Shown here: positions 1,162-61,257 of the stretch, in pieces
Position numbering within the stretch: the first letter of the stretch is position 1
How the letters are laid out: each line of letters starts with the position of its first letter
Source of the DNA: a virus
Taxonomy: Duplodnaviria > Caudoviricetes
Direction: 5' to 3' (one strand)
DNA: 64,000 nt
IMG/VR virus record: IMGVR_UViG_2754412371_000001
Coordinates: 29,313 to 93,312 of that record
Position numbers and translations under genes: made by a program
The notes under the pieces: model-generated
The model's database searches: none
What the model was told of the DNA's origin: nothing
Seen by the model: the letters and a program-made list of their open reading frames with translations, nothing else

Positions 1162-1179
1162 ATAGTCAGTCGTGACTTA
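1162..1179. promoter_or_regulatory. 18-bp palindrome site (upstream of SSB)
   Basis: ATAGTCA-gtcg-TGACTTA; overlaps a minus-strand TATAAT. Confidence 0.75.
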
Positions 1180-1206
1180 CTTTATAGATTAAAACGAAGG
1201 CATCCG

Positions 1207-1848
1207 CTAGGATGCTTGCTGCATCCGCGCCTGCTCTGCGGCGAGCGCACGGTCGCGAGCGCTGGTCGTCGCGTTGTCGGCTTCACGCGCCTGCATGATC
1301 CGCAGTTGACCCTCGCGCTCGCGCCGGCGATCCACCGATACCTGCACGATCATGTCCTTGCGCTGCATGTAGGCTTCGCGAGCATCGTTCGCGATGTCGT
1401 AGAGCGCGCGGGCCTCGATCACCTTGGTTTGGGCCGCAATCATGCGCGGATCGGACTTCACCGCGTTCTCGACCATCTTCTCGGTCGCCTTCAGGCCGTC
1501 CAGAACGAACTTCTTGCGCCATGCGGAATCGAGCGTCGACTCCATCACGTCAGCGGCCAGCTTGCACTTCTCCCACTGACGCCTCGCCAACGCTGCCTGC
1601 TGTGCGTAATGCACGAACATCGGCGCCTGGCTGATGACGGCTTCGTCGAGATCGTTCGGATTGACCTGTAGATCGTGCTTGAGCTGCGCCGCGTCGACGA
1701 ACACGCGCAGTCCATGTTCGTTCGGTTGGTCTGCCGGCACGGGCGCAGCCGGAGCCAGTTGTTCGACAGCACCTTCGACGGCCGGCTTGTCGATATTGCC
1801 CACCATCTGCGCCATCTGATTGACGGTCATTGCGGCGGTCTGAGTCAT
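1207..1848 (-). CDS. UvsY-like recombination mediator / coiled-coil protein
   Basis: Helical protein (..ATEKMVENAVKSDP..AYMQRKDM) next to a gp32-like SSB. Confidence 0.5.
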   Translation of the reverse strand: MTQTAAMTVNQMAQMVGNIDKPAVEGAVEQLAPAAPVPADQPNEHGLRVFVDAAQLKHDLQVNPNDLDEAVISQAPMFVHYAQQAALARRQWEKCKLAADVMESTLDSAWRKKFVLDGLKATEKMVENAVKSDPRMIAAQTKVIEARALYDIANDAREAYMQRKDMIVQVSVDRRREREGQLRIMQAREADNATTSARDRALAAEQARMQQAS

Positions 1849-1862
1849 GATCGTTCCTTCTG

Positions 1863-4800
1863 TTACGAGATAAGTTCGGCGGTTTTCGCCGCCACGGTCT
1901 GCAATACGGAATACTTGCCCGGATCGTGATAGATCTGCGCCGGGTTGATGCCGAACACGATCGACGCATCGCGCTTCGGGTCATACACGACCTTCCCTGC
2001 GAGCTCGGCGGTTGCCCCCTTCACGCTCGGCGCGAAGAATCGCGCTGAATTGCTCCCGAGCGTCACGATAACGGGCGGTTTCAGGATGTCGAGCTCACGC
2101 TGCAGGAATTCACTGCAGGCATTGATCTGCTCGTTCTTGAGCGTCTTCTGGTCCTTCGGCTTGCCGCTCTTCACCAGCGCCGTGAAGTAGCCGTCCTGCG
2201 GCGACAGCCCTGCCTCCTTCAGTGCGTTGATGAGCATCGCCGCGTTGTCGCCCTCGAGCAACTTGCCCGCCTTTTCCTCCTGCCAGTTCGGGTTGTCGGC
2301 GACCACCATGAACTTCGGCGTCTTACCCACGCGCGGCATCGGGTGGCAACCACCCGACAGCGAGCATTTATCGCAGCTGCGTGTTTCCTCAGCGAGCCGC
2401 ACGATTTGCAGCAGGGCGAGCTTCTCGGCGTTCAGCGCGCGGTCAGCTTTCACAGTTTCGACCGCAAAACCCGGCAAGAGCTCAATTCGGTCTTTCTGCC
2501 GGTCAGGGTGCATAGCCGTTACGCGATCGCCTTCGCACTCAGCGAACGCACCGATGCGCGCGAGCTTCTCCTTCACCGCGGAGTTGATGTGCCGGCCGGT
2601 ATAGCCGGCAGACTTCAGCGCCGCATCAAAGTCGGTGCGGTTCGCGAATGGCCGCCCCCACTTTGCGCGCGCGTCGACGACATAGCCTGCTGCGTTCTCC
2701 GACATGCCCTTGAGCGCCTGGAACGGCGCATACAGCTTGTCTTCGCCGACGATTTCGACACGGGCGCTCGAATGGTTGATGTCCGGTGGCAGGACTTGAA
2801 TGTTCATCCGGCGCGCCTCGGTCACCAGCAACTCGCGCTTCTCTTCCTTGTCGAGCTCCGTCAGCGACGCGGCGAAGAACTCCGCCGGGAAGTAGACCTT
2901 GAGCCACATCGTCCAGAACGAGATCACCGCATACTCGACTGAGTGCGATTTGTTGAAGGCGTAACCAGCGAACACCTCGATCTTGTCCCAGAGCATGCCT
3001 GCGGCGCGCTCGTCCATACCGGATACAGAGACGCAGCCAGATACGAACTTCTCGCGCATTTCGGCCATCTTCTCCTTGTCCTTCTTGCCCATTGCTTTCC
3101 GCAGGTGGTCTGCTTGGGCAAGCGTGAAGCCAGCAACGTCGCGGGCAACTTGCATCACCTGTTCCTGATACACGATCACACCGAACGTGTCTTTCAACGC
3201 AGGCGCCATATTCGGATGCTCGTAATACGGATGCTTCTTCCCCTGCTTGATGGCGATGTAGTCGTCGCACAGCCCGGCATCAAGCGGTCCCGGACGATAC
3301 AGCGCGACCGCAGCGACCAAGTCATCGAACGTGACATCGCCAGCGAGCGCCATTTCGCGCAAAATGCGACGCATACCAGGCGATTCAAACTGGAACACAC
3401 CCGTCGTGTCACCCTGCCCGAACGCCTTCATCACCTTGGCGTCGTTAAGCGGCAGCTTCAACAGGTCGATGGTCTTGCCGTGACGCTCCTTGATGTAGTC
3501 GGAGGCAAGCTTCAGGACATCGAGGTTCGTCAGACCCAAGATGTCCATCTTGATGAGCCCCCAATCCTCGACCGACCGCTTGTCCCAATTGCACACCGGG
3601 CCGCCCGTTCGGGTTTCGACAACCGCGCGGTTCACGATCGGCTCACCGGCCACAACGACGCCCGCTGCGTGCTGACCGAGGCCGCGCGCGGCGCCCTCAA
3701 GGTTTACGGCATGCTTCCAGACATCGGGGAACTTGTTTCGGAATTTGTCGATCTCGGGGACCACCGCGGCCGACTCTTCGAGCGACGCGGACACTCCATG
3801 CGTGCTTTCCATCTGCTTCGAACAGGCATAGTCGAACGGAGACAGGTCATGGACGCGCCCGCAATCACGAAGCGAGGACGCTGCGCCCAGCGTGTTGTAG
3901 TTGGAAATGCCTGCGACATTCTCCCGCCCGAAGTGCTCCACGATATATTCGATGACCTCGTGACGGCGCTTCGACATGAAGTCCAGGTCGGCGTCGGGCA
4001 AATCGAGACGCTCCGGGTTGATAAAGCGCTCGAACAGCAGATCGAACCGAATAGGATCGACGTCGGTGATACCCATCAGATACGCGACGAGCGAGCCGCC
4101 CACCGAACCGCGGCCTGGCCCGACGATGATGCCGGCCTGCTTCGCCCACTGGACGATATGCTGCGTCAGCAGGAAGTAGCCGGAAAAACCCAGCTTGCGC
4201 AAGGTATCGAGCTCATACGCAAGCCGTTGCTTGTATGCCGGCAGCTCGGACGCGTCGGGCTTGTGGCCCAGCACCGGCGCAGAGAACCGCTGCCGCCAGC
4301 CCACCGCGCATGCCTCCATCAGCGCCTTGAACTCGTCGTCGGCCATCTTGGGCAGACACGGATCCAGCTTCTTGAACTCGTATGTGCAGGCATCGGCGAG
4401 CTCCTGGTTGCCCTTCATCGCGTGCATCACCGGAAGGTCCAGATCCCGCGCGGCAACGACGATATCCGTCATCGGCTTCATGCAGAAGTCACGGGCATGC
4501 GGTCGCATGACGCGGCGATCGCCCATCTTGACGTCCCGCGCCTCGATGATGACTCGCATAACATCGAGCGTGTCGGCGTGCTCTTCGTTCGGGTAGAGCG
4601 CGGGCCAAGACAGAATCGCACTCATCCCGTGCTTGTTGATCATTTCCGTCGCGCGCTGGTTGATCGTGCGATACAGCGGCGTGTTGAGCGGCACGAGCTC
4701 CACGAACACCGGCATGCGGCGAAACAGGTCGACCAACACTTCCTCGTATTTCGTGTAATGGAACAGCCCGTAGAAGTCGCCAGTCGAAATTATGCAGTCC

Positions 4801-5222
4801 TCGAGCTCGTAGAGCTCCTGCAAGCCGATACGCGAGTGGTAGTAGAAGTATTCCGCGCTGTTGGCCTTCGACAGCAGCTTCATGAGGCTGCGCATGCCGT
4901 TGTCGTTCTTCACATAGGCTTTCACCATGAAGAACGGGTTGGGCTTTTCAGCCTCACCGCTCGACTTCGCGGGCTTGCGGTAGGTCGGATCCTCGTAGAC
5001 GCGCAGCGTGCAGCCGATGATCGGCTTGACCCCCGCTTTCTGCGCCTTGCCGGCGAAGGTGACCATGTTGGAAACGGTCATGGTGTCGACCAGCGCGAGC
5101 GAGGCGTAGCCCAGCTCCTTTGCGCGATCCACCATCTTGTCGACCTGCAGGATCGACTGCCCCATCGAGAAGTCGGATCGCGCATTCAGAAAGTGCCGTT
5201 GCAGACTCGTTGATACACTCAT
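1863..5222 (-). CDS. dnaE: DNA polymerase III alpha (family C) with a C-terminal uracil-DNA-glycosylase-like domain
   Basis: GPGRGSVGGSLVAY, FERFINPER, PDADLDF, HAAGVVV, GLIKMDILGL, GVFQFES, YAFNKSHS; C-terminus CDKC..C..INACSEFLQRELDILKPPVIVTLG. Confidence 0.95.
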   Translation of the reverse strand: MSVSTSLQRHFLNARSDFSMGQSILQVDKMVDRAKELGYASLALVDTMTVSNMVTFAGKAQKAGVKPIIGCTLRVYEDPTYRKPAKSSGEAEKPNPFFMVKAYVKNDNGMRSLMKLLSKANSAEYFYYHSRIGLQELYELEDCIISTGDFYGLFHYTKYEEVLVDLFRRMPVFVELVPLNTPLYRTINQRATEMINKHGMSAILSWPALYPNEEHADTLDVMRVIIEARDVKMGDRRVMRPHARDFCMKPMTDIVVAARDLDLPVMHAMKGNQELADACTYEFKKLDPCLPKMADDEFKALMEACAVGWRQRFSAPVLGHKPDASELPAYKQRLAYELDTLRKLGFSGYFLLTQHIVQWAKQAGIIVGPGRGSVGGSLVAYLMGITDVDPIRFDLLFERFINPERLDLPDADLDFMSKRRHEVIEYIVEHFGRENVAGISNYNTLGAASSLRDCGRVHDLSPFDYACSKQMESTHGVSASLEESAAVVPEIDKFRNKFPDVWKHAVNLEGAARGLGQHAAGVVVAGEPIVNRAVVETRTGGPVCNWDKRSVEDWGLIKMDILGLTNLDVLKLASDYIKERHGKTIDLLKLPLNDAKVMKAFGQGDTTGVFQFESPGMRRILREMALAGDVTFDDLVAAVALYRPGPLDAGLCDDYIAIKQGKKHPYYEHPNMAPALKDTFGVIVYQEQVMQVARDVAGFTLAQADHLRKAMGKKDKEKMAEMREKFVSGCVSVSGMDERAAGMLWDKIEVFAGYAFNKSHSVEYAVISFWTMWLKVYFPAEFFAASLTELDKEEKRELLVTEARRMNIQVLPPDINHSSARVEIVGEDKLYAPFQALKGMSENAAGYVVDARAKWGRPFANRTDFDAALKSAGYTGRHINSAVKEKLARIGAFAECEGDRVTAMHPDRQKDRIELLPGFAVETVKADRALNAEKLALLQIVRLAEETRSCDKCSLSGGCHPMPRVGKTPKFMVVADNPNWQEEKAGKLLEGDNAAMLINALKEAGLSPQDGYFTALVKSGKPKDQKTLKNEQINACSEFLQRELDILKPPVIVTLGSNSARFFAPSVKGATAELAGKVVYDPKRDASIVFGINPAQIYHDPGKYSVLQTVAAKTAELIS

Positions 5223-5237
5223 ATAAAGGGTTCCCGG

Positions 5238-5861
5238 TTAACAAACAGCAGTTTTCCCGACCGCGCCCGGCGCGCACACGATGCGGTCACCCGCCAGTCG
5301 CGCGATACCGAGCGCAGGGAAAAGCGCCACCACAATCGACACGCGCGAAAACGCGGTGCCCTCGGACCAACCATAAACGCGGACATACTCCGCGCGCAGC
5401 TTTGCTTTGGTGAACCCGCCGGCGAGCAGCATGTCGCCCGCGAGCCGCAGCCACGGTGCGCTCCCATTGCCGAAGGGGTTCTCGCCATTCGCGACCCGGT
5501 AGCGCGCCCGCGCGTCCAAGCCGCGCTTGAGCATCGGCTTCAACACCTTGGCGACGCGCACCGGGACAGAGGCGAGCAGAGCTTCTTCCCGTGCACCCAT
5601 CGTGAGATTGACTTTGAGCGACGCCATCGCGGGCGCCGCGATCGTTGTCATCGGGTTCGATGCGGGTGTCGACTGAGCAGTTACGACTTTTGCCGTGCGT
5701 TCCAGGTATGCGAGGTTCGTCGTGACGTCCATCTTCTTCGCCAGGGACATGAGCATCCCGTGACAAGCGGATACGCAACCGCCCTTCTCACCGCATGCGG
5801 AACACGTCTTGGATTCGGCGACGAAAACCGACGGCAAACCGTAGCAGCTCGGCGAAGCCAT
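5238..5861 (-). CDS. Hypothetical protein with N-terminal Cys cluster and possible C-terminal winged helix
   Basis: Start reassigned to MASPSCYG (overlaps the upstream stop); C..CSAC..C..C. Confidence 0.7.
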   Translation of the reverse strand: MASPSCYGLPSVFVAESKTCSACGEKGGCVSACHGMLMSLAKKMDVTTNLAYLERTAKVVTAQSTPASNPMTTIAAPAMASLKVNLTMGAREEALLASVPVRVAKVLKPMLKRGLDARARYRVANGENPFGNGSAPWLRLAGDMLLAGGFTKAKLRAEYVRVYGWSEGTAFSRVSIVVALFPALGIARLAGDRIVCAPGAVGKTAVC

Positions 5862-6517
5862 TACAGCGCAACCCCATAGACACGCTCGAGCTCGGCCCTG
5901 ACGCGATCGCACTCCGACTTCTTCAGGCTCAGGAACCGAAAGATCATGCGCAGCGTGATGTCCTTCGGCGGCAGCACCATGCGCTCGCACGTCTCTTCGA
6001 AGAACGCCATGAATTCGGGCGTCTGGTGCAGCAGCAACGCCACAACGCGCTTCGCATTCGGGGTGAGCATCGCAATGTTTGCCAACCGCGACTGGCGACG
6101 CTCGAGCAGGCTCTCGGGCGTGTCTGCGTCTTCCTCTTCATCCTGGGACGAGAGGAACTCGTAGCTGTCGCCGCTACCGCCCTCGTCGAGCCCGTCGCCT
6201 GCCAGCGCCTCGGTGCTCACCAGACCGAGTCTCGTTCGCTCTTCGATCATGCGCTCGGCCCACTTGTTGAAGTTGTTCCAGCACGACTGACCGAAGTAGG
6301 CAGAGAATTTCCAGCCCTTGGTCGGATCAAAGGTGGAGATACAGCGGACGAGGCTTTCGGTCATCTGCTGATAGACGTCCTCGTAATCAACCGAGACACC
6401 TGCTTCCGCGAGTCGGCCGAACCCCTTCTTCGCGAACTTATGGAGAAGACCGATGTTGTCGGTGTAGTAGGCACTGCGGGCGGCCGTAGCCGCCCTCGTT
6501 TCTGCGTGGGCAAGCAT
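5861..6517 (-). CDS. Sigma-70-family-like factor (region 2 clear, region 4 divergent)
   Basis: DYEDVYQQ..LVRCISTFDPTKGWKFSAY matches the sigma region 2 pattern FDPxKGxKFSTY. Confidence 0.7.
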   Translation of the reverse strand: MLAHAETRAATAARSAYYTDNIGLLHKFAKKGFGRLAEAGVSVDYEDVYQQMTESLVRCISTFDPTKGWKFSAYFGQSCWNNFNKWAERMIEERTRLGLVSTEALAGDGLDEGGSGDSYEFLSSQDEEEDADTPESLLERRQSRLANIAMLTPNAKRVVALLLHQTPEFMAFFEETCERMVLPPKDITLRMIFRFLSLKKSECDRVRAELERVYGVAL

Positions 6518-6526
6518 GGCCGGTCC

Positions 6527-7717
6527 TTAGCTGGTGAAGATGCGCGATGCGACGCCGTCGACGACTTGACGATCAACGGGCGAAAGTTTGTTGATGAAGG
6601 CGAGCGTCAGGCCGGCGCGCCAGCTGCCCTTGCGCAGCCCGATATCGGCTGCATCGATCAGGCAGCGCGGCGAGATCGTGTTGCTGATTTCCTTCGACCG
6701 ATACGAATCGCGCACCATGTTCGCGAACTGCACCAGTTTTTGTGCCTGGTCCGACTTGATCTTCGACCGGTTCACGAGGATCAATTGCTCGAGCTCAGGC
6801 TTCATGTAGGTCGCCTCAATGACCATGCCAAACCGGTCGAAGTTCGCAGCGTTCTGAATCTGCGTGCCCTGATACAGGCCCGTGTCGTCACCGGAGCCGT
6901 TCGTGTTGCCCGTCGCAACGAATCGGAAGTTCGGGTGTGGCTTCACGACGCGCCACTCCGGCGACGCATCTTTAATAATTAGTGACTTACCGTATTCGAG
7001 AATAGGCTGATACACAGCGAGGACGGCCGGCAACCCGAAGTCGTATTCGTCGGCGAGATAGATCCAGCCATGACGCATCGCGAGCGGCAGCAGGCCGGGC
7101 TCGAAGACGGTTTCACCGTTACGCACGACCCACTGGCCGAGCACATGCGCTTCTTCGGTGCCGATCGAGTGCTGGATGCGAACGACGGGTCGCCCGGTGC
7201 GTGCCGCGATCTGCTCGACGAGCGTCGTCTTGCCCGTCCCAGCGTGGCCCCAGACAAACAGGTTCTTTCCGAGTTCGATCGCCATCAAGGCGTTCTTGAG
7301 GTTGTCCACGTCGAAGATGAAGCCGCTGTCGACAGCGGGCACAAATTCGGGATTCGACGGGTTGGCAAAGACCGTCACGGGGATCGGCTGACCGCGTCCA
7401 TTCTTGCCGGCCGGCGCGTCACCGAGCCCAAAGACTTCATGCAGAGCGCCTGTCGTCTCCCCGTTCGGATTGAGCGCGGTGACATTCGCCGGCATTGCGC
7501 TGCCGGCCATAGCGACCGCCGGCGCGGCGCTGCCCTGCTCTGCCAGGCGCTTTGCGATCGCAGACTTCGCGACCTCAGACAGAACCGGCGCATTCGGATA
7601 CTGAGCCTGATACTGGTGAAGCGTCATGTCTTCATGCTTGTCCTTCAGGTGCAGCTCAACCGAATGGATCATCGCGCCGCAGATGGCGCAAGCGATCTTG
7701 CCGTTGGACTCGTTCAT
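6527..7717 (-). CDS. CobS/MoxR-like AAA+ ATPase with N-terminal C2H2 zinc finger
   Basis: CAIC..HLKDKH; Walker A GHAGTGKT; YLADEYD; HPNFRFVATGNTNG; NAANFDRF; SPR. Confidence 0.9.
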   Translation of the reverse strand: MNESNGKIACAICGAMIHSVELHLKDKHEDMTLHQYQAQYPNAPVLSEVAKSAIAKRLAEQGSAAPAVAMAGSAMPANVTALNPNGETTGALHEVFGLGDAPAGKNGRGQPIPVTVFANPSNPEFVPAVDSGFIFDVDNLKNALMAIELGKNLFVWGHAGTGKTTLVEQIAARTGRPVVRIQHSIGTEEAHVLGQWVVRNGETVFEPGLLPLAMRHGWIYLADEYDFGLPAVLAVYQPILEYGKSLIIKDASPEWRVVKPHPNFRFVATGNTNGSGDDTGLYQGTQIQNAANFDRFGMVIEATYMKPELEQLILVNRSKIKSDQAQKLVQFANMVRDSYRSKEISNTISPRCLIDAADIGLRKGSWRAGLTLAFINKLSPVDRQVVDGVASRIFTS

Positions 7718-7795: not shown

Positions 7796-7813
7796 AAAGT
7801 CACTTTTTACTTA
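7796..7813. promoter_or_regulatory. 18-bp palindrome site (upstream of cobS-like)
   Basis: AAAGTCA-cttt-TTACTTA. Confidence 0.65.
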
Positions 7814-10137: not shown

Positions 10138-10365
10138 TCACCTTGCGGATAACCAGTTGTTGAGCTTTTCTGCGCCATTGCTGGCAACCGCGATTGTGGA
10201 GTCGCCCATCGACGAATCGATCAGAATCAGCTGTCCGAAGTCCGGGTGCTCGCCGATCTCCGTTTGCGTGGAACCCGCGTCCATGCTTGCAATCAAACGC
10301 AAGTCGACCTTGAGGTCGATCATGGCCGAATACGGTGCACGGATAAGGGTGAGGTTCTCCAACAT
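10138..10365 (-). CDS. Small hypothetical protein
   Basis: ATG at 10365 with AAGGAA upstream; lies upstream of cobT, divergent from the repressor. Confidence 0.55.
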   Translation of the reverse strand: MLENLTLIRAPYSAMIDLKVDLRLIASMDAGSTQTEIGEHPDFGQLILIDSSMGDSTIAVASNGAEKLNNWLSAR

Positions 10366-10548
10366 GAAGCGTTCCTTGAATGATTGAGTTCTTCGTATCG
10401 TCCGCATGTTGATAAGCGGTTACTTATATTATAGACCGATACAGTCAGGATCAGACAAGTTTTGTGACGCTCCAGATACATGGGAAGCCAGGGCATCGAA
10501 ACGACTGCCGATAGTTCCTTCGTTGGGCGCTACTAGACCCACTATAAT

Positions 10549-10566
10549 AAAGTCATCTGTAACTAA
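10549..10566. promoter_or_regulatory. 18-bp palindrome site (upstream of repressor)
   Basis: AAAGTCA-tctg-TAACTAA directly after TATAAT. Confidence 0.55.
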
Positions 10567-10620: not shown

Positions 10621-11115
10621 ATGGCAACCAAACAAATTTCAGTCGCCGACTACATTTCTGGCGTGATCGGACTGTCGGGCAAACCGCAGCGACAGATCGC
10701 GGCGGAGATCGGTTACGAAAACCCGAACATGATCACGATGCTGAAGCAGGGCCGCACGCAGGTTCCGCTCAACAAGGTCAAGCTGCTTGCAAAGTCGTTG
10801 GGCATCGATCCCGTCCACCTGCTCCGCATGGTGATGATTGAAAAGACTCCGGAAGTCTGGGACATCCTGGAAGACATCATCGGCAGGAATTCGACGATCA
10901 CGCGTTCGGAATTTGCCCTTGTTGAGTATGCTCGCTCGGAACTGGGCGTGATGAACCTTGATTTCGCTGACCAAGAACTTATCGATGATCTTGGTAAGGC
11001 GTTTCGCTCGTTCGCGGAACGCAACAAGGAACGCCTTGATCTAGCGAGCAAAGAAGTCAAACGCGGCCCCGCCCCGAAGAAGGTTTCGGGCTCGACGCAG
11101 AAGCCGACTTCGTAA
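10621..11115 (+). CDS. XRE-family HTH repressor (probable immunity repressor)
   Basis: KPQRQIAAEIGYENPNMITMLKQGRTQVPL HTH; GGAGG RBS; TATAAT at 10543; divergent from the lytic genes. Confidence 0.8.
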   Translation: MATKQISVADYISGVIGLSGKPQRQIAAEIGYENPNMITMLKQGRTQVPLNKVKLLAKSLGIDPVHLLRMVMIEKTPEVWDILEDIIGRNSTITRSEFALVEYARSELGVMNLDFADQELIDDLGKAFRSFAERNKERLDLASKEVKRGPAPKKVSGSTQKPTS

Positions 11116-13123: not shown

Positions 13124-14520
13124 GCCGCCACCGCCGATGCAAACTGATGCTCGACGCGGGCCAGGTCGTCGGCTTCGGTCTTGTCGGTGCGATAGCTGGC
13201 TTCGACCATGCGCGGCAGGAACAGCGAGTGCAACGTGTTGTTCTCGGACGGCTTCATGATCGAGTTCGCGCGCACCGCAAAGATACGGCCGATGAAGTCG
13301 CTCGGGTTCGCATCGATCGAATCGCGCAGCGCCTCGTTCTTCACAGTCACGTCGACCTGAAGCTGACCGCAGGACGACGTGCAGGTCAACGAGCCAGCTC
13401 GGCCTTCGTTCTTCGTGCCGGCGCGGCCGTCCACGATCGCGACGCATTTCAGGTCGACGTCCACCTCCAGCTTGAGCTTGATCTGCTCCTTGCTCGTGCC
13501 GTCCTTCCAGATCGCATTGCCGTTCTTGATGATCGTTCCTTCCTTGCCTTGAGTCAGGAGCTCGCGGTAGTGAGCGAGCGCCTCCTCGAGCGAATGCACG
13601 ATGCGAGTCGGGATATGCTGAATCATCGGGTCGATTCCCGGCAGCGCGCGTGCGCCGGCCGCCAGCCCGAGCAGCAGAGCCTTGATGCGTTCGCGGTAGC
13701 CGACTTCGTATTTGCCCTTCGGCGCGACGACGCTCAGCGGGATTTGGTCCCATGCGAAGAACCGGGGCACCTCGTTGGCTTCGAACTCGCCGCCCGCGGC
13801 GATGCGGTTCAGGATGCCGTTGCTGATTTCGCGCGGGGCGATCGTGCCGTCGACGAGCACCAGCATTTCGCCGTGCGTCTGCGTGCCGGCCGGGAACAAG
13901 GCGCGAACGTGGTCAACGAAACCACCGAATGCCTCGAGAGGAAACGGCGAGCCCTGACGACTGGTGATGCGAACTACCCCGCCCGTCTCGTGATCGACAT
14001 TCATGAACATGCCGTCGGCCTTCTCCTGCGAGATAACGCCGTCGCCCCATGTCCACGCATCGAGCTTCGCGTCCTTCAGCAGCGCGCAACGCATATAGGG
14101 GAATTCGAGAATCAGCCCCTTCCATGCCTTGTTGACCGTCGACTCGGAGAAGCCGGCACGCAGATCCTTGCGAATGATCCGCTTGAACAGTTCTGCCGAG
14201 CTGGGCGTCAGGAACGTCATAAGGCGCTGCACCTCGTCGCGAGCCGCGTTGCCAGTGAGCTCGCGCTTCGCCATCTTGTCCAGGCAGTCCCAGACCGGCG
14301 CGTTCTCGAACGTGTTCGCGCCCGGTGCCGCATTCTCGATGGGGCCGGGAACTTGCGTTATGCCGTAGGTGGTCAGCGGGTCGAGCGCCGCGACGAGCAC
14401 GCGCTTGAACGTGTCGAACGCGAGGAACTGTTTCACCATCGCCTGCTTGTCGTTCTTGCTGGAGGTAGCCGCGATGCTCTCGATCGCCGCGAAAGCCTGG
14501 TCGGAGTTCATGTGAGTCAT
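13120..14520 (-). CDS. ATP-dependent DNA ligase
   Basis: Motif I QEKADG; HGEM; EGTIIKN; IKLK; SLFLPR; start reassigned to MTHMNS. Confidence 0.92.
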   Translation of the reverse strand: MTHMNSDQAFAAIESIAATSSKNDKQAMVKQFLAFDTFKRVLVAALDPLTTYGITQVPGPIENAAPGANTFENAPVWDCLDKMAKRELTGNAARDEVQRLMTFLTPSSAELFKRIIRKDLRAGFSESTVNKAWKGLILEFPYMRCALLKDAKLDAWTWGDGVISQEKADGMFMNVDHETGGVVRITSRQGSPFPLEAFGGFVDHVRALFPAGTQTHGEMLVLVDGTIAPREISNGILNRIAAGGEFEANEVPRFFAWDQIPLSVVAPKGKYEVGYRERIKALLLGLAAGARALPGIDPMIQHIPTRIVHSLEEALAHYRELLTQGKEGTIIKNGNAIWKDGTSKEQIKLKLEVDVDLKCVAIVDGRAGTKNEGRAGSLTCTSSCGQLQVDVTVKNEALRDSIDANPSDFIGRIFAVRANSIMKPSENNTLHSLFLPRMVEASYRTDKTEADDLARVEHQFASAVAA

Positions 14521-14530
14521 TAGTGACTTA
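14513..14530. promoter_or_regulatory. 18-bp palindrome site (over the ligase start)
   Basis: TGAGTCA-ttag-TGACTTA. Confidence 0.75.
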
Positions 14531-15993: not shown

Positions 15994-16011
15994 ATAGTCA
16001 CCGATTACTTA
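15994..16011. promoter_or_regulatory. 18-bp palindrome site
   Basis: ATAGTCA-ccga-TTACTTA; overlaps a minus-strand TATAAT. Confidence 0.7.
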
Positions 16012-18922: not shown

Positions 18923-18961
18923 AAAATTAGCGATGACTTAATTATAGTCATTGCTTACTTA
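18923..18961. promoter_or_regulatory. Tandem palindrome sites (upstream of the Hfq-like gene)
   Basis: AAAATTA-gcga-TGACTTA and ATAGTCA-ttgc-TTACTTA flanking a minus-strand TATAAT. Confidence 0.7.
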
Positions 18962-19650: not shown

Positions 19651-19771
19651 TTGGGGCTTCCTCTCATTTCCATTATTGATAAGTTTCAGATTAATTATAG
19701 GTATAGGTTCATGGAATTTAGAAAGGTTAGAAATTGAGGGAGCGCGGTCCTGGCCCCAAGCAATCCTTGAT

Positions 19772-21647: not shown

Positions 21648-21665
21648 ATAGTCATTGCTTACTTA
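21648..21665. promoter_or_regulatory. 18-bp palindrome site (upstream of lysis genes)
   Basis: ATAGTCA-ttgc-TTACTTA. Confidence 0.7.
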
Positions 21666-27035: not shown

Positions 27036-27053
27036 TAAGTCATTGCTGACTTA
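27036..27053. promoter_or_regulatory. 18-bp palindrome site (upstream of tail fibre)
   Basis: Perfect TAAGTCA-ttgc-TGACTTA. Confidence 0.85.
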
Positions 27054-33677: not shown

Positions 33678-34041
33678 AGAACCCGAAAACCCTCTTGCTC
33701 TTTTCCCAATCTGAAAGCCGCTCGATCGTCACGCCGCCGGTCTTGTCCCATGCGTGGATAAAGCGGCTTGCGTCGATGACATAGCCGCAGTGGTTGATGT
33801 GGCGCCCCATCCGGAAAAGCACGCAGCAGCCGGGCTTCGGCCCGTCGAGCTTTTTCCAGAAGACACGGGCGCACGCCATCATTGCCCCGATGCGCGCGGC
33901 ATCCCCAGACACCCCGTAGTCCGGCGGCCGCTTGCCCGTGGCCTGCTCCGTGAGGTGCATCACCAGCCCGTAGCAGTCGAACGAATCAGGCCCGCGACCG
34001 CCGAGCTCAAAGGGGACGCCGAGAAGATCATGATAAGTCAT
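33655..34041 (-). CDS. NlpC/P60 tail assembly protein (lambda K-like)
   Basis: GGRGPDSFDCYGL..HCGY..FIHA. Confidence 0.9.
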   Translation of the reverse strand: MTYHDLLGVPFELGGRGPDSFDCYGLVMHLTEQATGKRPPDYGVSGDAARIGAMMACARVFWKKLDGPKPGCCVLFRMGRHINHCGYVIDASRFIHAWDKTGGVTIERLSDWEKSKRVFGFYEYQHAE

Positions 34042-34051
34042 TTGTGACTTA
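34034..34051. promoter_or_regulatory. 18-bp palindrome site (over the NlpC gene start)
   Basis: Perfect TAAGTCA-tttg-TGACTTA. Confidence 0.85.
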
Positions 34052-40232: not shown

Positions 40233-40250
40233 TAAGTCGCCGCTGACTTA
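40233..40250. promoter_or_regulatory. 18-bp palindrome site
   Basis: TAAGTCG-ccgc-TGACTTA. Confidence 0.8.
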
Positions 40251-41143: not shown

Positions 41144-41161
41144 TACGTCACCGCTGACTTA
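41144..41161. promoter_or_regulatory. 18-bp palindrome site (upstream of major tail)
   Basis: TACGTCA-ccgc-TGACTTA. Confidence 0.8.
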
Positions 41162-44386: not shown

Positions 44387-44412
44387 GTGGTGGAACTCCC
44401 TGTCCAAAACGG

Positions 44413-44443: not shown

Positions 44444-44457
44444 GCATTCTACCCTCT

Positions 44458-44475
44458 TAAATCACTAGTGACTTA
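44458..44475. promoter_or_regulatory. 18-bp palindrome site
   Basis: TAAATCA-ctag-TGACTTA. Confidence 0.8.
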
Positions 44476-44484
44476 CCGTCAGGC

Positions 44485-45387
44485 TTAAATGTTGGTGACG
44501 CCGCGCAGACGAGCCAGCGAACGGGTCGACTTCAGAGCCGTGCCGCAATACCACTTCACGCGGATGCGGTCGGCGTCCTTGTTCTGCACCGTGCCGACGT
44601 CTTCGACGCGAATGCCCGCGTCCTTGCCGCCCCAGAGGCCGTGCATGCCGTCGAGCTCGTTCAGACGGACGGCATAGATCGAACACGTCTTGGCGTTCGT
44701 GCCCATCGTCTCGTCGTTCGCGAGCCAGTCGTTACGCAGGATCGGGATGCCGTTGTGAGCGAGCACCGCCTGGCCGAAATTCGGGATCTCGACCATCGCC
44801 GGCTGGATGCCGCCGGTCGCGTAGAGCAGCGCGCGGTATGCGCGGATCGTGCCCGGACGCATCACGAACGCGTCGGCGCCGTTGATGACCGCGTCGGCCA
44901 GCTCGTCCATCATCGACAGCGTCAGCGACGCACCGTTCGCGTCAGCGTCCAGCGTCATCGCCGAGGTGACCAACTGCGGCAGGCCGTCGAATTCCTTCGG
45001 GTTCTTCGCCGCGTTGCCCTGCGCGATCGTCTTCTTGAAGATACGGCCGACCGCCTTGGCCTTCATCGCGATCTGCGTCGCGCGCTGGTCGTTCGTATCC
45101 GAATCGGTTTCCTGCAGGAACTTGTCGACGTCCACGTCGCCCGCGAGGATGCGCAGCTTCGACACGACCTCGTCGAACGTGCCTGCGTCCTCGTTCACGG
45201 TGTCGTTCGGCGACAGGAAGTCAGCCGTCGGCAGCGTGTTCTCGCGGTCGTAGACGTAAGCCTTCCCGTTGATGCCGATGAAGGGGATCAGCGCGAAGAG
45301 CTCATCGCGTTCGATGATTTCCTCGATCACGCCGGCGACAAGCTGATTGTTCGACAGCTTCTCGGCTTCTGCTTGCAACAGAGGCAT
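44485..45387 (-). CDS. Major capsid protein (HK97 fold)
   Basis: ILAGDVDVDKF..EFDGL..GIPILRNDW..RVKWY; follows the scaffold gene. Confidence 0.9.
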   Translation of the reverse strand: MPLLQAEAEKLSNNQLVAGVIEEIIERDELFALIPFIGINGKAYVYDRENTLPTADFLSPNDTVNEDAGTFDEVVSKLRILAGDVDVDKFLQETDSDTNDQRATQIAMKAKAVGRIFKKTIAQGNAAKNPKEFDGLPQLVTSAMTLDADANGASLTLSMMDELADAVINGADAFVMRPGTIRAYRALLYATGGIQPAMVEIPNFGQAVLAHNGIPILRNDWLANDETMGTNAKTCSIYAVRLNELDGMHGLWGGKDAGIRVEDVGTVQNKDADRIRVKWYCGTALKSTRSLARLRGVTNI

Positions 45388-45413: not shown

Positions 45414-45431
45414 TAACTCATCGGTGACTTA
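45414..45431. promoter_or_regulatory. 18-bp palindrome site (upstream of major capsid)
   Basis: TAACTCA-tcgg-TGACTTA. Confidence 0.8.
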
Positions 45432-48046: not shown

Positions 48047-48064
48047 TAAATCACTGCTGACTTA
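48047..48064. promoter_or_regulatory. 18-bp palindrome site (upstream of portal)
   Basis: TAAATCA-ctgc-TGACTTA. Confidence 0.8.
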
Positions 48065-50095: not shown

Positions 50096-50113
50096 TAAAT
50101 CACTGACGACTTA
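50096..50113. promoter_or_regulatory. 18-bp palindrome site (upstream of terS)
   Basis: TAAATCA-ctga-CGACTTA. Confidence 0.75.
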
Positions 50114-52168: not shown

Positions 52169-52497
52169 TCGAAGCTCAGCCCCCGCGCGATGACACCGAA
52201 CGAGGTCAGCCAGTCCTCAACCTGTGCCCTGGTGCGCGCGCCGGAGAACTGCGCCTTGACGACGCCGTCCTGGAGCACTCGCAAGTTCGGCACGCCACGC
52301 ACGCCGAGCGTCTCTAGATCTTCTGGGCTGATGTCGGCTGCATTGATCTCGGTGCAGTTGAAACCGTAGTCGGCCTTGAGCGCCTGCAGCGCAGGCTTGA
52401 GCATCTTGCACGGGCCGCACCACGGCGCAGTGAAGATGACGACTTCGGGCGCCGTGCTCGAGCCGGAAAGGAGCTTGTCGTAGATCTGTTTCATCAT
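52165..52497 (-). CDS. Thioredoxin
   Basis: FTAPWCGPCK; GVRGVP. Confidence 0.93.
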   Translation of the reverse strand: MMKQIYDKLLSGSSTAPEVVIFTAPWCGPCKMLKPALQALKADYGFNCTEINAADISPEDLETLGVRGVPNLRVLQDGVVKAQFSGARTRAQVEDWLTSFGVIARGLSFE

Positions 52498-53210
52498 GCC
52501 ATCCGTTTCAGGAGTTCGAATGCCTCGTCGCGCGTCATCACACGCTCGCCGGCAGCGGCCGCATTCAGCTCTTTGAACGTCTCGACGCGCAGCTTTTCGC
52601 GATAGCGCTTCTCGATGTAGAGCGACGGCTGGAGGTCTTCCACGAGGTCGAGGTGGGTCGTCGCAACGATCACCGTCGCCCCAACCTTGCGCGCGGTCTT
52701 CTGCACCGCATACGCGATCACCTTCGCCGCGGTGCGGTCGAGCACCGCCATGAACTCGTCGGCCACCCAGACGTCGGCCTGGCTTTCGATCGCCTTCGCC
52801 AAGCGGAAGCGGTAGCGCTGGCCGTCGGACAGCTCGCCGGGCTTTCGGATGAACAGGTAGGCGTCGTTCAGCCCGGCGATGGACAGCAGCCGGATCGCGT
52901 CGTTGGTCGAGGTGCCGATCTGGTCGATCAAGGGAACGTCGGGCTCGAGGTGGACGTGGTCGAGGTTCGCGACCTTCTTGCCGGCCGCGTCCATCTGGTC
53001 GGAAAGCTCGCGCAGCAGCAGCGACTTGCCCGCGCCCGACTGGCCGGTGATGTAGACGACGTCGCCCTGCTCCACGTCCAGATTCAGCTCGTCGAAGATC
53101 ACGAACTCCTTGTCGTCCAGGCCGAGGCCGAATGCCTCTGCCACCTCGACGACGCGCTGCGATCGCGCGACGCGGGTGTGGAACCGCTTGTCAATGAGAT
53201 AGGTTGTCAT
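52494..53210 (-). CDS. Soluble ABC-family ATPase
   Basis: GQSGAGKS; LSDGQ; VWVADE; VATTH; no permease nearby. Confidence 0.9.
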   Translation of the reverse strand: MTTYLIDKRFHTRVARSQRVVEVAEAFGLGLDDKEFVIFDELNLDVEQGDVVYITGQSGAGKSLLLRELSDQMDAAGKKVANLDHVHLEPDVPLIDQIGTSTNDAIRLLSIAGLNDAYLFIRKPGELSDGQRYRFRLAKAIESQADVWVADEFMAVLDRTAAKVIAYAVQKTARKVGATVIVATTHLDLVEDLQPSLYIEKRYREKLRVETFKELNAAAAGERVMTRDEAFELLKRMA

Positions 53211-53211
53211 T

Positions 53212-53229
53212 TAAATCATTCGTGATTTA
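53212..53229. promoter_or_regulatory. 18-bp palindrome site (fills the ParB/ABC gap)
   Basis: TAAATCA-ttcg-TGATTTA, a perfect palindrome. Confidence 0.75.
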
Positions 53230-53883
53230 CTGTTGGCGCCGAATAAAAGCGATCAGCGCGTCTGCGCCGGCCAGGCCCGTTTCTGCCTGCACGCGCGCCA
53301 TGAAGCGGGATACGTGGATCTCGTCGACGCCAGCGATGTCCTTGAACCCAAACACCTTCGCGAGCGGCACGCGGCGCGCACTGACCGCGTCCGCTTTCGC
53401 GTGTGCCTCTTCCTCCTGCTGCTCGACTGCTACCGCGACGTCCGGCACGAACGCGTCGACATTGAGCTCGCCGAGGTCGGCCGCGGAGAACTCGAGTTCC
53501 TTCGTGTCGAAGATGCCCACCAGCAGCGATTCGAGGCCGGCCACTTCCTCGCGGAACATGAGCGTGTCGATGCCGCCTTCGTTCGTGCGGTTGTCGGCGA
53601 GACGCAGCGCGCGTTTCTCTTCGTCGGTCAGGCCCGACAGGATCACGACGGGCACTTCTTCCATGCCGCGCTTGATGGCCGCCAGCCGCCGGCCATGGCC
53701 GGCGATGATCTCGCCGTGGTCATCGATGACGATCGGCTGGGTCCAGCCGAACTGCTCGATCGACTCGACGATCTTGTTCACTTGCGCGTCGTCGTGCTTC
53801 TTGACGTTCTTTGCATACGGGACCAGCGCGGCGACCTTCCAGACGTCCTCGCGACGGGTAACTCGGGGATGATTTCGGCTCAT
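53227..53883 (-). CDS. ParB/Srx N-terminal domain protein
   Basis: LVPYAKN..SIEQFGWTQPIVID..IIAGHGRRLAA..LADNR. Confidence 0.9.
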   Translation of the reverse strand: MSRNHPRVTRREDVWKVAALVPYAKNVKKHDDAQVNKIVESIEQFGWTQPIVIDDHGEIIAGHGRRLAAIKRGMEEVPVVILSGLTDEEKRALRLADNRTNEGGIDTLMFREEVAGLESLLVGIFDTKELEFSAADLGELNVDAFVPDVAVAVEQQEEEAHAKADAVSARRVPLAKVFGFKDIAGVDEIHVSRFMARVQAETGLAGADALIAFIRRQQ

Positions 53884-54083
53884 GCGGCCTCTTTGTTTCG
53901 GTAGAACTGCACGATCGCGGAGCGACGCGCGGAGAGGTGTTCCGTGGTGTCCTCCGGCTCGAATTGCGAAGCGCTATCGCACGCTTCGCAAATGGCCGGC
54001 TCGCGGTTGTGGAAGTAGCAGCGCTGGCACTCCGGGTAGAGGAACTCAGCGCGCGGGATGCGGGCAAAACCGGTCGGCTTCAT
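53880..54083 (-). CDS. Small 4-Cys protein
   Basis: CQRC..CEAC; overlaps both neighbours by 4 bp. Confidence 0.7.
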   Translation of the reverse strand: MKPTGFARIPRAEFLYPECQRCYFHNREPAICEACDSASQFEPEDTTEHLSARRSAIVQFYRNKEAA

Positions 54084-54559
54084 GCGATCAACGTCCAGTC
54101 TTCAGCGAGCACGTCGGTCTGCGACGCGAGCCACGGCACGAACTTCTCGTCGGCTGTCTTCATGCCGATCCAGGGCAACTTCTCGCAGCCGAGAGCGTGC
54201 ACGGAACCCGCGCGCGAATCGGGGTTGTAGTCGTAGCCGAACACGAGCGCGAGCCACATGCCCTTCCCATTCCATCCTGCCCGAGCGACTCGCTTGCCTG
54301 CCTTCAGTGCTTCGATTGCATCGCCAAAGGTCATGCCTTCGACCTGCCGATATGCACGCTCGAACACCGCCTTCGGCGACCAGCTGACGTAGCCGGCATA
54401 GAGCGCCGTGTTGGCTGCCCCGCCGTCTGCGTATTCGACGAGATAGCCCTCGTCGGCCGGGTTCTCGTCGGCCGGCACCGTCCAGCCACGCAACGTGTTG
54501 TAGGCGCCGCGCGTCATCGGTTCGGCGTTGACGATCTTGGTTCCGAGGTATCGCTTCAC
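54080..54559 (-). CDS. DUF2829 (Tad2-like) domain protein with an extra N-terminal domain
   Basis: MTFGDAIEALKAGKRVARAGWNGKGMWL..PWLASQTDVLAEDW. Confidence 0.85.
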   Translation of the reverse strand: MKRYLGTKIVNAEPMTRGAYNTLRGWTVPADENPADEGYLVEYADGGAANTALYAGYVSWSPKAVFERAYRQVEGMTFGDAIEALKAGKRVARAGWNGKGMWLALVFGYDYNPDSRAGSVHALGCEKLPWIGMKTADEKFVPWLASQTDVLAEDWTLIA

Positions 54560-55209
54560 TTGTATGCCTTCATCAGATGGACGAAGGCGTTGCCGGCGTT
54601 CGTCATAGAGTCTTCCTGCGTGAAGCCCTGTTCACGTGAGGCTCGATCGATCGCGGACGTGATCCACGCGACATCCTCGACAGGCACCTTGAAGCGCATC
54701 ACCTGATGGGTGGCACCTGCGCTCGGCAGCTCAGGCATCTGCGGTTCAGCGTCAGAATCCAGCTCGTCGAGATCTATACTCGAAGCCATGAGAATGTCGG
54801 TGAGCTCGCCGTCGGTGTAGGGCAGGAATTCGGCGACGTCGTTGCCGAGCTCCTTGAGCAGGCGTGACAGCGCGAGCGTGTCGTCTTCGCCGTAGCGACC
54901 GTTGTCGACGAGGCCAATCTCCTTCGCCGCTTTGTCGCTGATGCGGCCGACGTTGATGATCGGAACTTCCGTGAGCCCGATCCGCTTCGCGCTCTCCCAG
55001 CGGTGCTCGCCACCCAGGATTTCGAACGCGCCGTCGTCGATAGTTCGAACGACGACAGGTTTGTAGAGCCCACCAAAGCGCCTCAGCGACGCGTCAAGCT
55101 TCGCTTCGTTCTCCGGGCTCATGTGGTTTGTGTTCCAGGGGTTGGGTCGCAGCATGTCGATCGGGACGGTCGCCTGTGATACCTGGATGTGGGTAGCTGA
55201 ACCTGCCAT
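54556..55209 (-). CDS. ParB/Srx N-terminal domain protein
   Basis: LRPNPWNTN..PVVVR..EILGGEHRW. Confidence 0.88.
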   Translation of the reverse strand: MAGSATHIQVSQATVPIDMLRPNPWNTNHMSPENEAKLDASLRRFGGLYKPVVVRTIDDGAFEILGGEHRWESAKRIGLTEVPIINVGRISDKAAKEIGLVDNGRYGEDDTLALSRLLKELGNDVAEFLPYTDGELTDILMASSIDLDELDSDAEPQMPELPSAGATHQVMRFKVPVEDVAWITSAIDRASREQGFTQEDSMTNAGNAFVHLMKAYK

Positions 55210-58951: not shown

Positions 58952-58978
58952 TTAGTGGGCGCATATCGCGCCCACTAA
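58952..58978. terminator. Hairpin downstream of the 58987-59655 gene
   Basis: ttagtgggcgc-atatc-gcgcccactaa perfect 11-bp stem. Confidence 0.7.
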
Positions 58979-58986
58979 ATCACCAT

Positions 58987-59655
58987 TTACTTATCTTTCT
59001 TCGCCCCTTTAACGAGCGAAAGGGTGTCATCGCTTGCAGTCTCAACCATCTTTGCGATTGCAGCGATGAACGGGGATTTTTCGTTCACTTCCAGGGTTGC
59101 TTCTTTGCCCTTTACGCGAACCATCTTACCCATGCCCAGATACTTGCAGAACCCGTTAGAACCAAACGAGCGGGAATTCTGCGTGCCCTCCGTCGTGATA
59201 CCCACCCCGCCAATGACGCGACGAAGCTTATTGACCAGAGATACATCGCGCACCACGTCAGACGTCGAATCGTCGCCCTTGCCCGTCGTCGCATAGACCA
59301 GTGCACTACGGGAAACCGCGCCCGCATGAATCGCGCTCAGAAGCGACAGAGCGGTAACACCATCAAGCATGGTGTAGTCTTTCGCATGCAAGCATGCGAG
59401 GAACTCAGACACGCGCTTTACTGCTTTCACGCCCATATTGTCGGCGATGGTCGACAGGAATTCGATATCGGAGATCTTTGCGCGCTTGAGCATGCCCGCA
59501 GCGAAAACGCAAAGCTTGTCGTCCCAATACTTGCGTGCGGTTTTCAGGTCTTCGCACTCGCCCGCGCGCCCTTCTTTCTTGGACCAACGATCGTTAGCCC
59601 GGTTGATTGCGATCATGACGTTTTCGAGGGTGAAGACGTTTTCTTGTGCGTTCAT
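58987..59655 (-). CDS. Hypothetical protein, stand-alone transcription unit
   Basis: 222-aa ORF, AGGT RBS, AT-rich upstream region with a palindrome site. Confidence 0.8.
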   Translation of the reverse strand: MNAQENVFTLENVMIAINRANDRWSKKEGRAGECEDLKTARKYWDDKLCVFAAGMLKRAKISDIEFLSTIADNMGVKAVKRVSEFLACLHAKDYTMLDGVTALSLLSAIHAGAVSRSALVYATTGKGDDSTSDVVRDVSLVNKLRRVIGGVGITTEGTQNSRSFGSNGFCKYLGMGKMVRVKGKEATLEVNEKSPFIAAIAKMVETASDDTLSLVKGAKKDK

Positions 59656-59745: not shown

Positions 59746-59763
59746 TAAGTCACTAAGGACTTA
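59746..59763. promoter_or_regulatory. 18-bp palindrome site
   Basis: TAAGTCA-ctaa-GGACTTA. Confidence 0.75.
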
Positions 59764-60465: not shown

Positions 60466-60681
60466 CTATTCCTGCGCCAAGGCGGTCATTGTAAGCGGGA
60501 GCTTATCGTCCCGCGCCCTAAATTTTACCGGCGCCCTTTCCATCGACGTGGTGCAATTGCATTGAGCCAATCCGCTGCCCGGCTCAATGCAATTGCTGAT
60601 ACCGCGACGATCACCATCGCTGAAATCCAGCCGACGATAGCCGCAATCATTCCAGATCTCAACATAATTCCGCACTCCCAA
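60466..60681 (-). CDS. Hypothetical protein
   Basis: Short ORF, start uncertain. Confidence 0.3.
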   Translation of the reverse strand: MGVRNYVEIWNDCGYRRLDFSDGDRRGISNCIEPGSGLAQCNCTTSMERAPVKFRARDDKLPLTMTALAQE

Positions 60682-60795
60682 TTTCTACATCTGAAATGGT
60701 ATCGAGCGGTTCGAGGAGTCTTGTTGCTCCCCTCGATGGCTGGACTCAGTGGATTTTGGATTCGGGTGGATTCTGAAAAATCTAGGAATCCGCCC

Positions 60796-61173
60796 TTACC
60801 CCAGATGCGAAATCATATGCAGGTGCCTGACGAGGTTCACCATCGAGAAGCCGTCGTCGAAGCCGATCACTGACATGCAAAGGGCCGCAAAACCCGTCGC
60901 TGCGCCGAACACCGTCGTCAGTCGTTGCAGCAGCGCATTTGTCTTGGCAGGCCGCGGCGCGCGCTGAGCCACCCCTTCTGTCGGGGCGATATCGATCGTG
61001 ATCTCTTCAACACGGCTGAACGACAGCACCTCGATACCGGCGTCACGATACGCCGCGGCGATCTGCTCGAACCATCGTTTTTGCTTGACCTCGTCACGCG
61101 GAAAAGGCGTCTCCAGCCTCACCACATGAAAGTTTTGATTCGCGTCAAGGCAGTCAAATTTCACGATTCTCAT
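60796..61173 (-). CDS. Hypothetical protein with C-terminal hydrophobic segment
   Basis: GGGGA RBS; palindrome site upstream. Confidence 0.6.
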   Translation of the reverse strand: MRIVKFDCLDANQNFHVVRLETPFPRDEVKQKRWFEQIAAAYRDAGIEVLSFSRVEEITIDIAPTEGVAQRAPRPAKTNALLQRLTTVFGAATGFAALCMSVIGFDDGFSMVNLVRHLHMISHLG

Positions 61174-61239
61174 AGCATCCCCGGCAGTGCCCCTATTCTC
61201 GAAGCAGGCGATGTTACAACACGTAACAGGTTATAACAA

Positions 61240-61257
61240 TAAGTCACAATAAATTTA
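61240..61257. promoter_or_regulatory. Degenerate 18-bp palindrome site
   Basis: TAAGTCA-caat-AAATTTA. Confidence 0.5.

Follow-up and report, generated by a model that had tools for sequence, protein, structure and literature searches.

A dispersed palindrome and a Cro/CI-type protein as a candidate genome-wide repression system in SSU5-like phages

What is one palindrome, TAAGTCA-N4-TGACTTA, doing between the genes of every module of an integrated phage, and which protein reads it? The question is raised by a stretch of 64,000 nucleotides (nt), henceforth the window, that covers bases 29313–93312 of a 93,312-bp provirus record in IMG/VR (IMGVR_UViG_2754412371_000001, here also G000) and belongs to a siphophage resembling Salmonella phage SSU5 and Rhizobium phage RHEph10. 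From the comparisons described below, the palindromes are probably operators for a homodimer of a phage-encoded protein of the XRE/Cro-CI type, which would act as a repressor. Large prophages and phage-plasmids like SSU5 are common; the control of their lysis and lysogeny is essentially undescribed in the searchable literature, and we found there no description of this motif or of regulation and immunity in the SSU5 group.

A palindrome repeated between genes

Allowing up to two mismatches, the window contains 14 copies of the palindrome against 0.05 expected from dinucleotide-preserving shuffles, and allowing up to three it contains 21 against 0.62. Neither count was reached by any shuffle, and the first-pass annotation of this DNA was right to regard a chance origin as unlikely. 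All 20 copies that it had listed are present; the list was incomplete, lacking those at 10409, 58976 and 19680 (the last degenerate) and a half-site within a gene at 6972. A position weight matrix run over the whole 93-kb record recovers about 30 good copies plus a few degenerate ones; eight of these precede the window, in the first 29 kb of the provirus.

When the record was divided into coding and non-coding DNA by codon-usage gene calls, 27 of 29 copies (up to three mismatches) fell outside coding sequence, compared with 0.36 in shuffled non-coding DNA of the same composition, which agrees with the mainly intergenic placement described earlier. The gap from the upstream stop codon to the palindrome is often only 0–10 nt. 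The distance to the following start codon runs from 0 to more than 60 nt, and a signal linked to start codons was rejected on this ground. In an exact-pattern scan of 596 Gb of bacterial genomes, each stretch among the matches listed (at least 120) contained a single copy. Within the record itself, positions 1–7250, next to the integrase and with about 11 genes annotated without function, hold no copy at all; these genes may be expressed in lysogeny or be cargo, and so lie outside the regulon.

Conservation across relatives

The same exact pattern, searched in IMG/VR, is found in many contigs of 100–117 kb with several copies each. Three complete genomes (G001, G002 and G005) carry 33–38 copies each at up to two mismatches, and at up to three mismatches 41 of 43 copies are intergenic in G001 (GC content 43.7%), 40 of 46 in G005 (53.6%) and 36 of 38 in G002 (59.6%); enrichment and intergenic placement hold in four genomes of 44–61% GC. 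The core proteins of these three genomes are 40–60% identical to those of the element and no nearer to it than those of Pseudomonas phage nickie or SSU5. Four genomes this distant keep the motif at only 40–60% protein identity, and it has therefore outlived all other similarity in their DNA.

Counting lineage variants, relatives spanning 39–65% GC have 20–45 palindromes per genome. In RHEph10 the variant TCAGT(C/A)AATATTGA(C/T)TGA occurs about 24 times, and in SSU5 the variant TA(A/G)GTAAG-NN-CTTAC(T/C)TA about 22 times. Palindromes did not exceed controls in nickie, Stenotrophomonas phage ANB28 and Xanthomonas phage JGB6. For a broader sample we took the best of 558 terminase relatives in IMG/VR; in most of those represented by 12 kb or more, the 21 kb that surround the terminase gene contain 5–14 palindromes of the TAAGT(C/A)A type.

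Sites also recur at orthologous junctions. Genes with a site in the element have an ortholog with an upstream site in 28 of 51 cases, against 28 of 131 for genes without one (Fisher p=2.6e-5), and the portal gene and the CobS-like gene are preceded by a site in each of the six genomes compared. At the end of the capsid gene, the stop codon, a palindrome and a strong terminator hairpin follow one another in the same order in the four TAAGTCA-type genomes (window 44407–44485; G001 8946, G002 23982, G005 38646). A -10-like box after this palindrome would start transcripts within the terminator stem and so let them escape termination. We also noted tandem operators exactly 21 bp apart, or two helical turns, in two distant phages (window 18923–18961; G002 28399–28437), a spacing suggestive of two dimers that bind cooperatively to the same face of the helix.

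Two half-sites rather than a hairpin

Each palindrome consists of 7-bp half-sites with centres 11 bp apart, about one helical turn, and arms that vary independently. Such a repeat, lying between genes, could form a stem of 7–8 bp with a loop of 2–4 nt, and might accordingly be an RNA hairpin (for processing, stability or termination) or a DNA cruciform. We compared the arms with all sites oriented by the direction of transcription. At position 4 the asymmetries do lean towards wobble pairs (19 G.U against 9 A.C), but over all positions there is no such bias (59 G.U against 47 A.C, p=0.29), and 204 of the 310 asymmetries are transversions that cannot pair. Complementary arm positions in each genome are as many as expected for independent arms, with no covariation within sites. 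Independent, symmetric arms without wobble bias point to two half-sites that are read separately and not to a hairpin in RNA or DNA; on this evidence the behaviour of the site appears to be the signature of a dimeric helix-turn-helix protein.

Other observations are equally hard to reconcile with a hairpin, which we consider scarcely plausible. The sequence of the arms, beyond their pairing, is conserved among phages whose DNA has otherwise fully diverged, and the transcription starts proposed below would lie within the repeat. No U tract follows the repeat on its 3' side, and on that account an intrinsic terminator was rejected. A consistent strand asymmetry of the half-sites was rejected too: the 5' half is the stronger one in G000 and G005, the pattern is reversed in G002, where it is the 3' half, and we attribute these differences to local context.

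The candidate binding protein

The first-pass annotation had offered three candidates for a common regulator: an XRE protein, a winged helix-turn-helix protein (50539) and a sigma-like factor. Only the XRE protein fits, by its co-distribution with the motif, by the sites at its own promoter and by the covariation of its recognition helix with the half-site. The winged helix-turn-helix protein is absent from the motif-bearing G002, G005 and RHEph10 and present in the motif-less nickie, and the sigma-like factor is poorly conserved, besides which symmetric sites are not read by sigma factors.

BLAST and profile searches detected an XRE homolog together with palindromes in G001, G002, G005 and RHEph10. 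Of 24 further near-complete relatives, enterobacterial phage-plasmids among them, 22 also had a homolog; palindromes occur in most of these, four having just 1–2 matches close to the terminase gene. A search for the XRE protein led to 32 loci in IMG/VR, and all of them have 4–16 palindromes within 20 kb. The same searches found no homolog in nickie, ANB28 and JGB6, which are also free of palindromes; they are lytic relatives lacking both protein and sites. The homolog of Escherichia coli phage Cyrano bears the annotation of putative repressor and occupies the same locus, divergent from a small gene and then a CobT-like gene (42188–43038).

SSU5 departs from this pattern, with about 22 palindromes kept and no XRE homolog found. 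Its syntenic place (41776–42761) holds a tRNA-Asn gene, and both the repressor gene and the small divergent gene are missing, which suggests that SSU5 is a natural repressor-less, lytic derivative of a temperate phage-plasmid in which the sites were retained. As SSU5 propagates without the XRE protein yet keeps the sites, the protein would act by repression and not by activation.

No block of the family is better conserved than the helix-turn-helix, (K/N)PNIITMFKQG, the rest being 25–40% identical, and the first residue of the helix goes with the base at position 6 of the half-site. The fraction of A there averages 0.12 with Lys (n=21) and 0.62 with Asn (n=15; Mann-Whitney p=1e-6, uncorrected for phylogeny), Lys being accompanied by C and Asn by A or a mixture. 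In their usual contacts Lys prefers a G:C pair and Asn an A:T pair. At least three Lys/Asn switches can be placed on the protein tree, each with the expected shift in the half-site, and a Gln-Ser (QSN) variant of the helix accompanies TCAGTCAAT. Profile searches match the XRE protein to Rco (8bny, E=5e-5) and to the 434 repressor. An AlphaFold model (AF2, pLDDT 89.5) has a five-helix domain of the Cro/CI type and a helical C-terminal domain; its Foldseek matches include 434 Cro, P22 c2, lambda cI and C-proteins and, over both domains, Stl and DdrO, which are repressors of mobile elements. No peptidase S24 domain is present in the protein, so induction would not proceed by RecA-stimulated self-cleavage.

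Could another dimeric protein bind the palindrome instead? Dispersed palindromes of 16–18 bp at variable distances from promoters resemble KorB/ParB sites, and the element encodes two ParB_N proteins, one of which might act as KorB does on its OB sites; an 89-amino-acid (aa) product is a further possibility, its gene keeping its position beside the XRE gene, as is a host factor. Such a binder would also account for SSU5 and the two other motif-bearing relatives without the XRE protein. Nevertheless, the ParB_N proteins are equally conserved in the palindrome-free nickie, BLAST detects no relatives of the 89-aa protein in the compared phages, and a host factor would have to be common to hosts of 39–65% GC, yet the variants of the motif track the phage lineage and the XRE helix. 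We therefore rate another binder as rather unlikely and retain the XRE protein as the candidate.

Relation to promoters

The XRE gene (10621–11115) is the only plus-strand gene of its region. In the gap of 213 bp that separates it from the 89-aa gene, both directions read TATAAT followed at 0–1 nt by a degenerate palindrome. Elsewhere the downstream half of the palindrome is fused in sense to TATAAT, giving TGACTATAAT, at window positions 1162, 15994 and 18944 and at record positions 16422 and 25183. These five fusions are in the early half of the record, and none in antisense occurs among the palindrome copies. The TGAC-TATAAT boxes that had been pointed out on the minus strand at the three window positions are thus real, and so is the -10-like box at 55226. 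Where a palindrome instead follows the -10 box, as beside the XRE gene, transcription would probably begin inside it.

In G002 seven near-identical strong promoters, YGCAAWCC-N12-CGCTATATT, lie within 56986–102773. The palindrome comes 1–8 nt after the -10 box at six of the seven and overlaps the -35-like box at two further sites, a variable register that is expected of operators and not of promoter elements. The -35-like box YGCAAWCC itself departs from the sigma-70 sequence; the phage sigma-like factor might recognize it.

The coupling of palindromes to -10-like boxes is tight enough to ask whether the motif is itself part of a phage-specific promoter, read by the sigma-like factor that the replication module encodes (5861–6517) or by a modified host polymerase. 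We find this very unlikely, given that the half-sites are symmetric and independent, that the better-conserved half-site (sense-oriented) differs between phages, that the register to the -10 and -35 boxes varies, that the sigma-like protein shows hardly any conservation among phages with the motif and is missing from the corresponding locus of SSU5, and that the motif is missing from the lytic relatives. A promoter of the T7 or sigma type was rejected, the sites being symmetric and of varying register and family searches of the element's proteins having found no gene for a single-subunit (T7-type) polymerase.

An unlikely alternative keeps the XRE protein as the binder and makes it mainly an activator of promoters without a -35 box, that is, a transcription factor of the lytic cycle. 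Most of the associated promoters do have a -10 box only, with no conserved -35 box, the XRE gene is co-directional with early genes in G002 and RHEph10, and RHEph10 was isolated as a plaque-forming phage. However, the centres of the sites, at about +3 or -19 from the inferred start, are positions that occlude polymerase and not those of an activator; SSU5 is a propagated phage with 22 sites and no XRE gene; and the lytic relatives do without both the protein and the sites.

Repression by the XRE protein has to be set against several observations that weigh on the other side. As in SSU5, the XRE homolog was not detected in G013 and G019, which carry the motif. The Pfam HTH_3 match of the protein (19.9 bits) is under the curated cut-off, and correction of the helix covariation for phylogeny leaves 2–3 independent Lys/Asn contrasts, too few for significance. 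There are 69 homologs in bacterial contigs, many with the same helix, that belong mostly to other elements without dispersed palindromes and for which local operators are weakly supported. On the promoter side, of 157 oriented sites, 41 have a TAnnnT hexamer immediately before the palindrome in sense and 26 in antisense (p=0.053), and a -10-like box at the 3' end of the palindrome shows no difference between sense and antisense. As a general rule the latter arrangement was rejected; the coupling to promoters appears clear for a subset only, and many sites have no demonstrable promoter.

The bacterial homologs also bear on the origin of the layout: as they lack dispersed sites, the dispersed arrangement is a trait of the phage lineage and not of the protein family. 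For the same reason, these 69 proteins bring no power to the Lys/Asn covariation, only a caveat. The link between the XRE protein and the palindrome is thus an indirect one, through co-distribution and helix covariation.

A proposed model of genome-wide repression and its known counterparts

In the mechanism that we propose, one XRE monomer would bind each half-site TAAGT(C/A)A, 11 bp from centre to centre, and the operators would sit on or directly beside the core promoter elements of about 30 transcription units in every module. Some would lie just 3' of the -10 box and so mask the point where transcription begins; others would be in the spacer or on the -10 box itself, and some of those in relatives would overlap a -35-like box. 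RNA polymerase would be shut out of the prophage promoters by bound dimers, and perhaps also kept from reading through within the long late operon. A single protein would in this way silence the entire genome, and two weak sites over its own divergent promoters would give autoregulation. What computation establishes is the sites and where they lie, their symmetry free of any pairing constraint, their conservation in sequence and position across the family, and their co-distribution and covariation with the XRE protein; binding, its repressive sign and the starts within the palindrome are what we infer. Repression is favoured over activation by the overlap of sites with -10 boxes and start sites and by the viability of SSU5 without the protein. 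The earlier idea of one dimeric regulator at the boundaries of gene blocks thus stands in silico, with independent half-sites, a family-wide motif and orthologous junctions in its favour, and of its two options, silencing or activation, the first is preferred.

How does such a system compare with others? The C1 repressor of phage P1 acts alone at many dispersed, asymmetric 17-bp operators over a plasmid prophage of about 100 kb, late genes being controlled indirectly. The element would be like P1 in having one repressor with operators scattered at the promoters of separate operons over a genome of about 100 kb, and its SSU5-group relatives are also plasmid prophages. In contrast to P1, the sites are palindromic, the candidate is an XRE/Cro-CI helix-turn-helix protein and not a member of the C1 family with asymmetric 17-bp operators, and sites are found inside the structural operon as well.

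The lambdoid repressors (434, P22 c2, lambda cI) are confined to the immunity region, where they have two or three operator clusters. With these Cro/CI proteins, and with Stl of Staphylococcus aureus pathogenicity islands (SaPI), the candidate shares its fold, a palindromic candidate operator whose half-sites are separated by one helical turn, and the divergent layout of repressor and early gene with sites over its own predicted promoters. Unlike the lambdoid repressors, it would have about 30 operators over all modules, and it has no peptidase S24 domain. KorB is a ParB-family CTPase with 12 OB palindromes on plasmid RK2; the likeness there would be in dispersed palindromic operators at variable distances from promoters and in the global silencing of a mobile element, and the difference is that the ParB_N proteins of the element do not co-vary with the motif.

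Among mycobacteriophages, the Cluster A repressor (L5 gp71, TipsytheTRex) has operators and stoperators in 20–35 intergenic copies, through which a single repressor is proposed to silence the prophage; stoperators are 13–14 bp long, asymmetric, oriented with transcription and bound by a two-domain monomer (PMC9283540, PMC6550527). The element has the same many copies in short gaps genome-wide, also inside long operons, but its sites are symmetric, without consistent orientation or strand bias. The analogy to P1 C1 and to stoperators that had been drawn therefore applies to the dispersed layout and fails for the symmetry of the sites and, in the case of stoperators, for their orientation. Start-associated sequences of Cluster K phages are likewise short conserved motifs at many gene starts; they are asymmetric and lie at a fixed short distance from start codons (PMC3203893), unlike the palindrome of the element with its range of 0 to more than 60 nt.

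Judged by its fold and the symmetry of its operator, the putative system is thus of the Cro/CI type, spread from the immunity region to the whole genome. Operators dispersed genome-wide are a known strategy that seems not to have been described in this widespread phage family. A wider view, which we put forward tentatively, is that this is an ancient, family-wide operator-repressor immunity of SSU5-like phages and phage-plasmids of alpha-, beta- and gamma-proteobacteria, with few specificities set by the helix residue (Lys with TAAGTCA, Asn with TAAGTAA, Gln-Ser with TCAGTCAAT) and only a handful of cross-immune groups, in which the sites of the late operon would be symmetric roadblocks, a palindromic counterpart of stoperators. 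If the proposed repression is true, a single repressor would explain the silence of about 100 kb of lytic genes, a sequence rule would predict, for hundreds of relatives without a cultured isolate, where promoters and operon heads lie and to which immunity group each belongs, and the family would provide a compact test case for one helix residue re-specifying a whole regulon.

The element and its sites

The element is an integrated siphophage with nearly all its genes on the minus strand. Its nearest named phages are SSU5 with its Klebsiella and E. coli phage-plasmid relatives, RHEph10 and nickie, at 37–54% protein identity. Family searches identified genes for a DnaE polymerase, CobS/CobT-like ATPases, a sigma-like protein, DNA ligase, primase, DnaB, RecA, SbcCD, ribonucleotide reductase and thymidylate synthase; the siphovirus head-tail module is complete, and the left end of the record has a tyrosine integrase. 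The sites in the window are listed below with the genes beside them.

Table. Putative operator copies in the window and the divergent gene pair of the candidate repressor (window coordinates; an empty cell means that nothing was assigned).
Feature	Coordinates	Strand	Context
Operator copy	1162..1179		Minus strand reads TAAGTCACGACTGAC-TATAAT, 3' half fused to -10 box
Doubtful copy, one good half-site	6972..6989		Within CobS-like AAA gene
Operator copy	7796..7813		Upstream of CobS-like AAA gene; ortholog has upstream site in 5/5 compared genomes
89-aa gene, divergent from XRE gene, Cro-like position	10138..10407	minus	No family match; layout as in phage Cyrano
Degenerate operator, leftward promoter	10409..10426		Minus strand: TATAAT-a-TAAGTAACCGCTTATCAA-c-ATG
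Degenerate operator	10549..10566		Immediately 3' of TATAAT (10543–10548), rightward XRE-gene promoter
XRE/Cro-CI-type helix-turn-helix protein, 164 aa, proposed palindrome-binding repressor	10621..11115	plus	
Operator copy	14513..14530		Shortly before probable DNA ligase gene start
Operator copy, TGAC-TATAAT class	15994..16011		Between primase and next gene
Tandem operator pair (18923, 18944), 21 bp apart, TATAAT between	18923..18961		Ahead of Hfq-like/DnaB/primase genes
Degenerate copy	19680..19697		6 nt before likely true start of phrog_2500 gene
Operator copy, TAAGTAAGCAATGACTATA class	21648..21665		
Perfect copy	27036..27053		Upstream of 1505-aa tail fibre gene
Perfect copy	34034..34051		Tail operon, 12-nt gap; first base overlapped by TAGAAT
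Copy	40233..40250		Between major tail protein gene and tail chaperone genes
Copy	41144..41161		Upstream of major tail protein gene; at ortholog in 4/5 relatives
Copy	44458..44475		Between major capsid stop codon and terminator hairpin
Copy	45414..45431		Upstream of major capsid gene
Copy	48047..48064		Upstream of portal gene, in spacer of TTGACA-N17-TTTAAT; at ortholog in 5/5 relatives
Copy	50096..50113		Upstream of small terminase-like and large terminase genes
Copy	53212..53229		Between ParB_N gene and ABC-ATPase gene
Copy, 4 mismatches, good weight-matrix score	55226..55243		Divergent gap before plus-strand helicase gene; plus-strand TATACT at 3' end
Copy	58976..58993		Right arm
Copy	59746..59763		Right arm
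Degenerate copy	61240..61257		Divergent gap, right arm

Some neighbouring genes have features of their own. The DnaE polymerase (window 1863–5222) ends in a domain of the uracil-DNA-glycosylase superfamily (Pfam UDG, residues 967–1099), a fusion that is also present in the annotation of RHEph10. Two overlapping frames 3' of the major tail protein gene, 39951–40232 and 39806–40186 (window 39806–40250), look like the usual tail-chaperone frameshift pair, and a palindrome directly adjoins the first ATG. The two ParB_N-domain proteins and an ABC-type ATPase without a permease are encoded beside the terminase genes (window 52494–55209); these proteins are kept in all relatives, the motif-less nickie included.

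Further repeated words were seen in the related phages. SSU5 has a second repeated palindrome, AAACAA-N-TTGTTT, in 11 exact copies. In nickie there is an intergenic word, TAAACGCTTGCA, whose component 7-mers occur in 9–11 gaps and which is probably the -35 region of a promoter. A second word between genes, ATCGCTAAA(T), occurs in 12–14 gaps of RHEph10, and it is similar to the CGCTATATT -10 region of G002.

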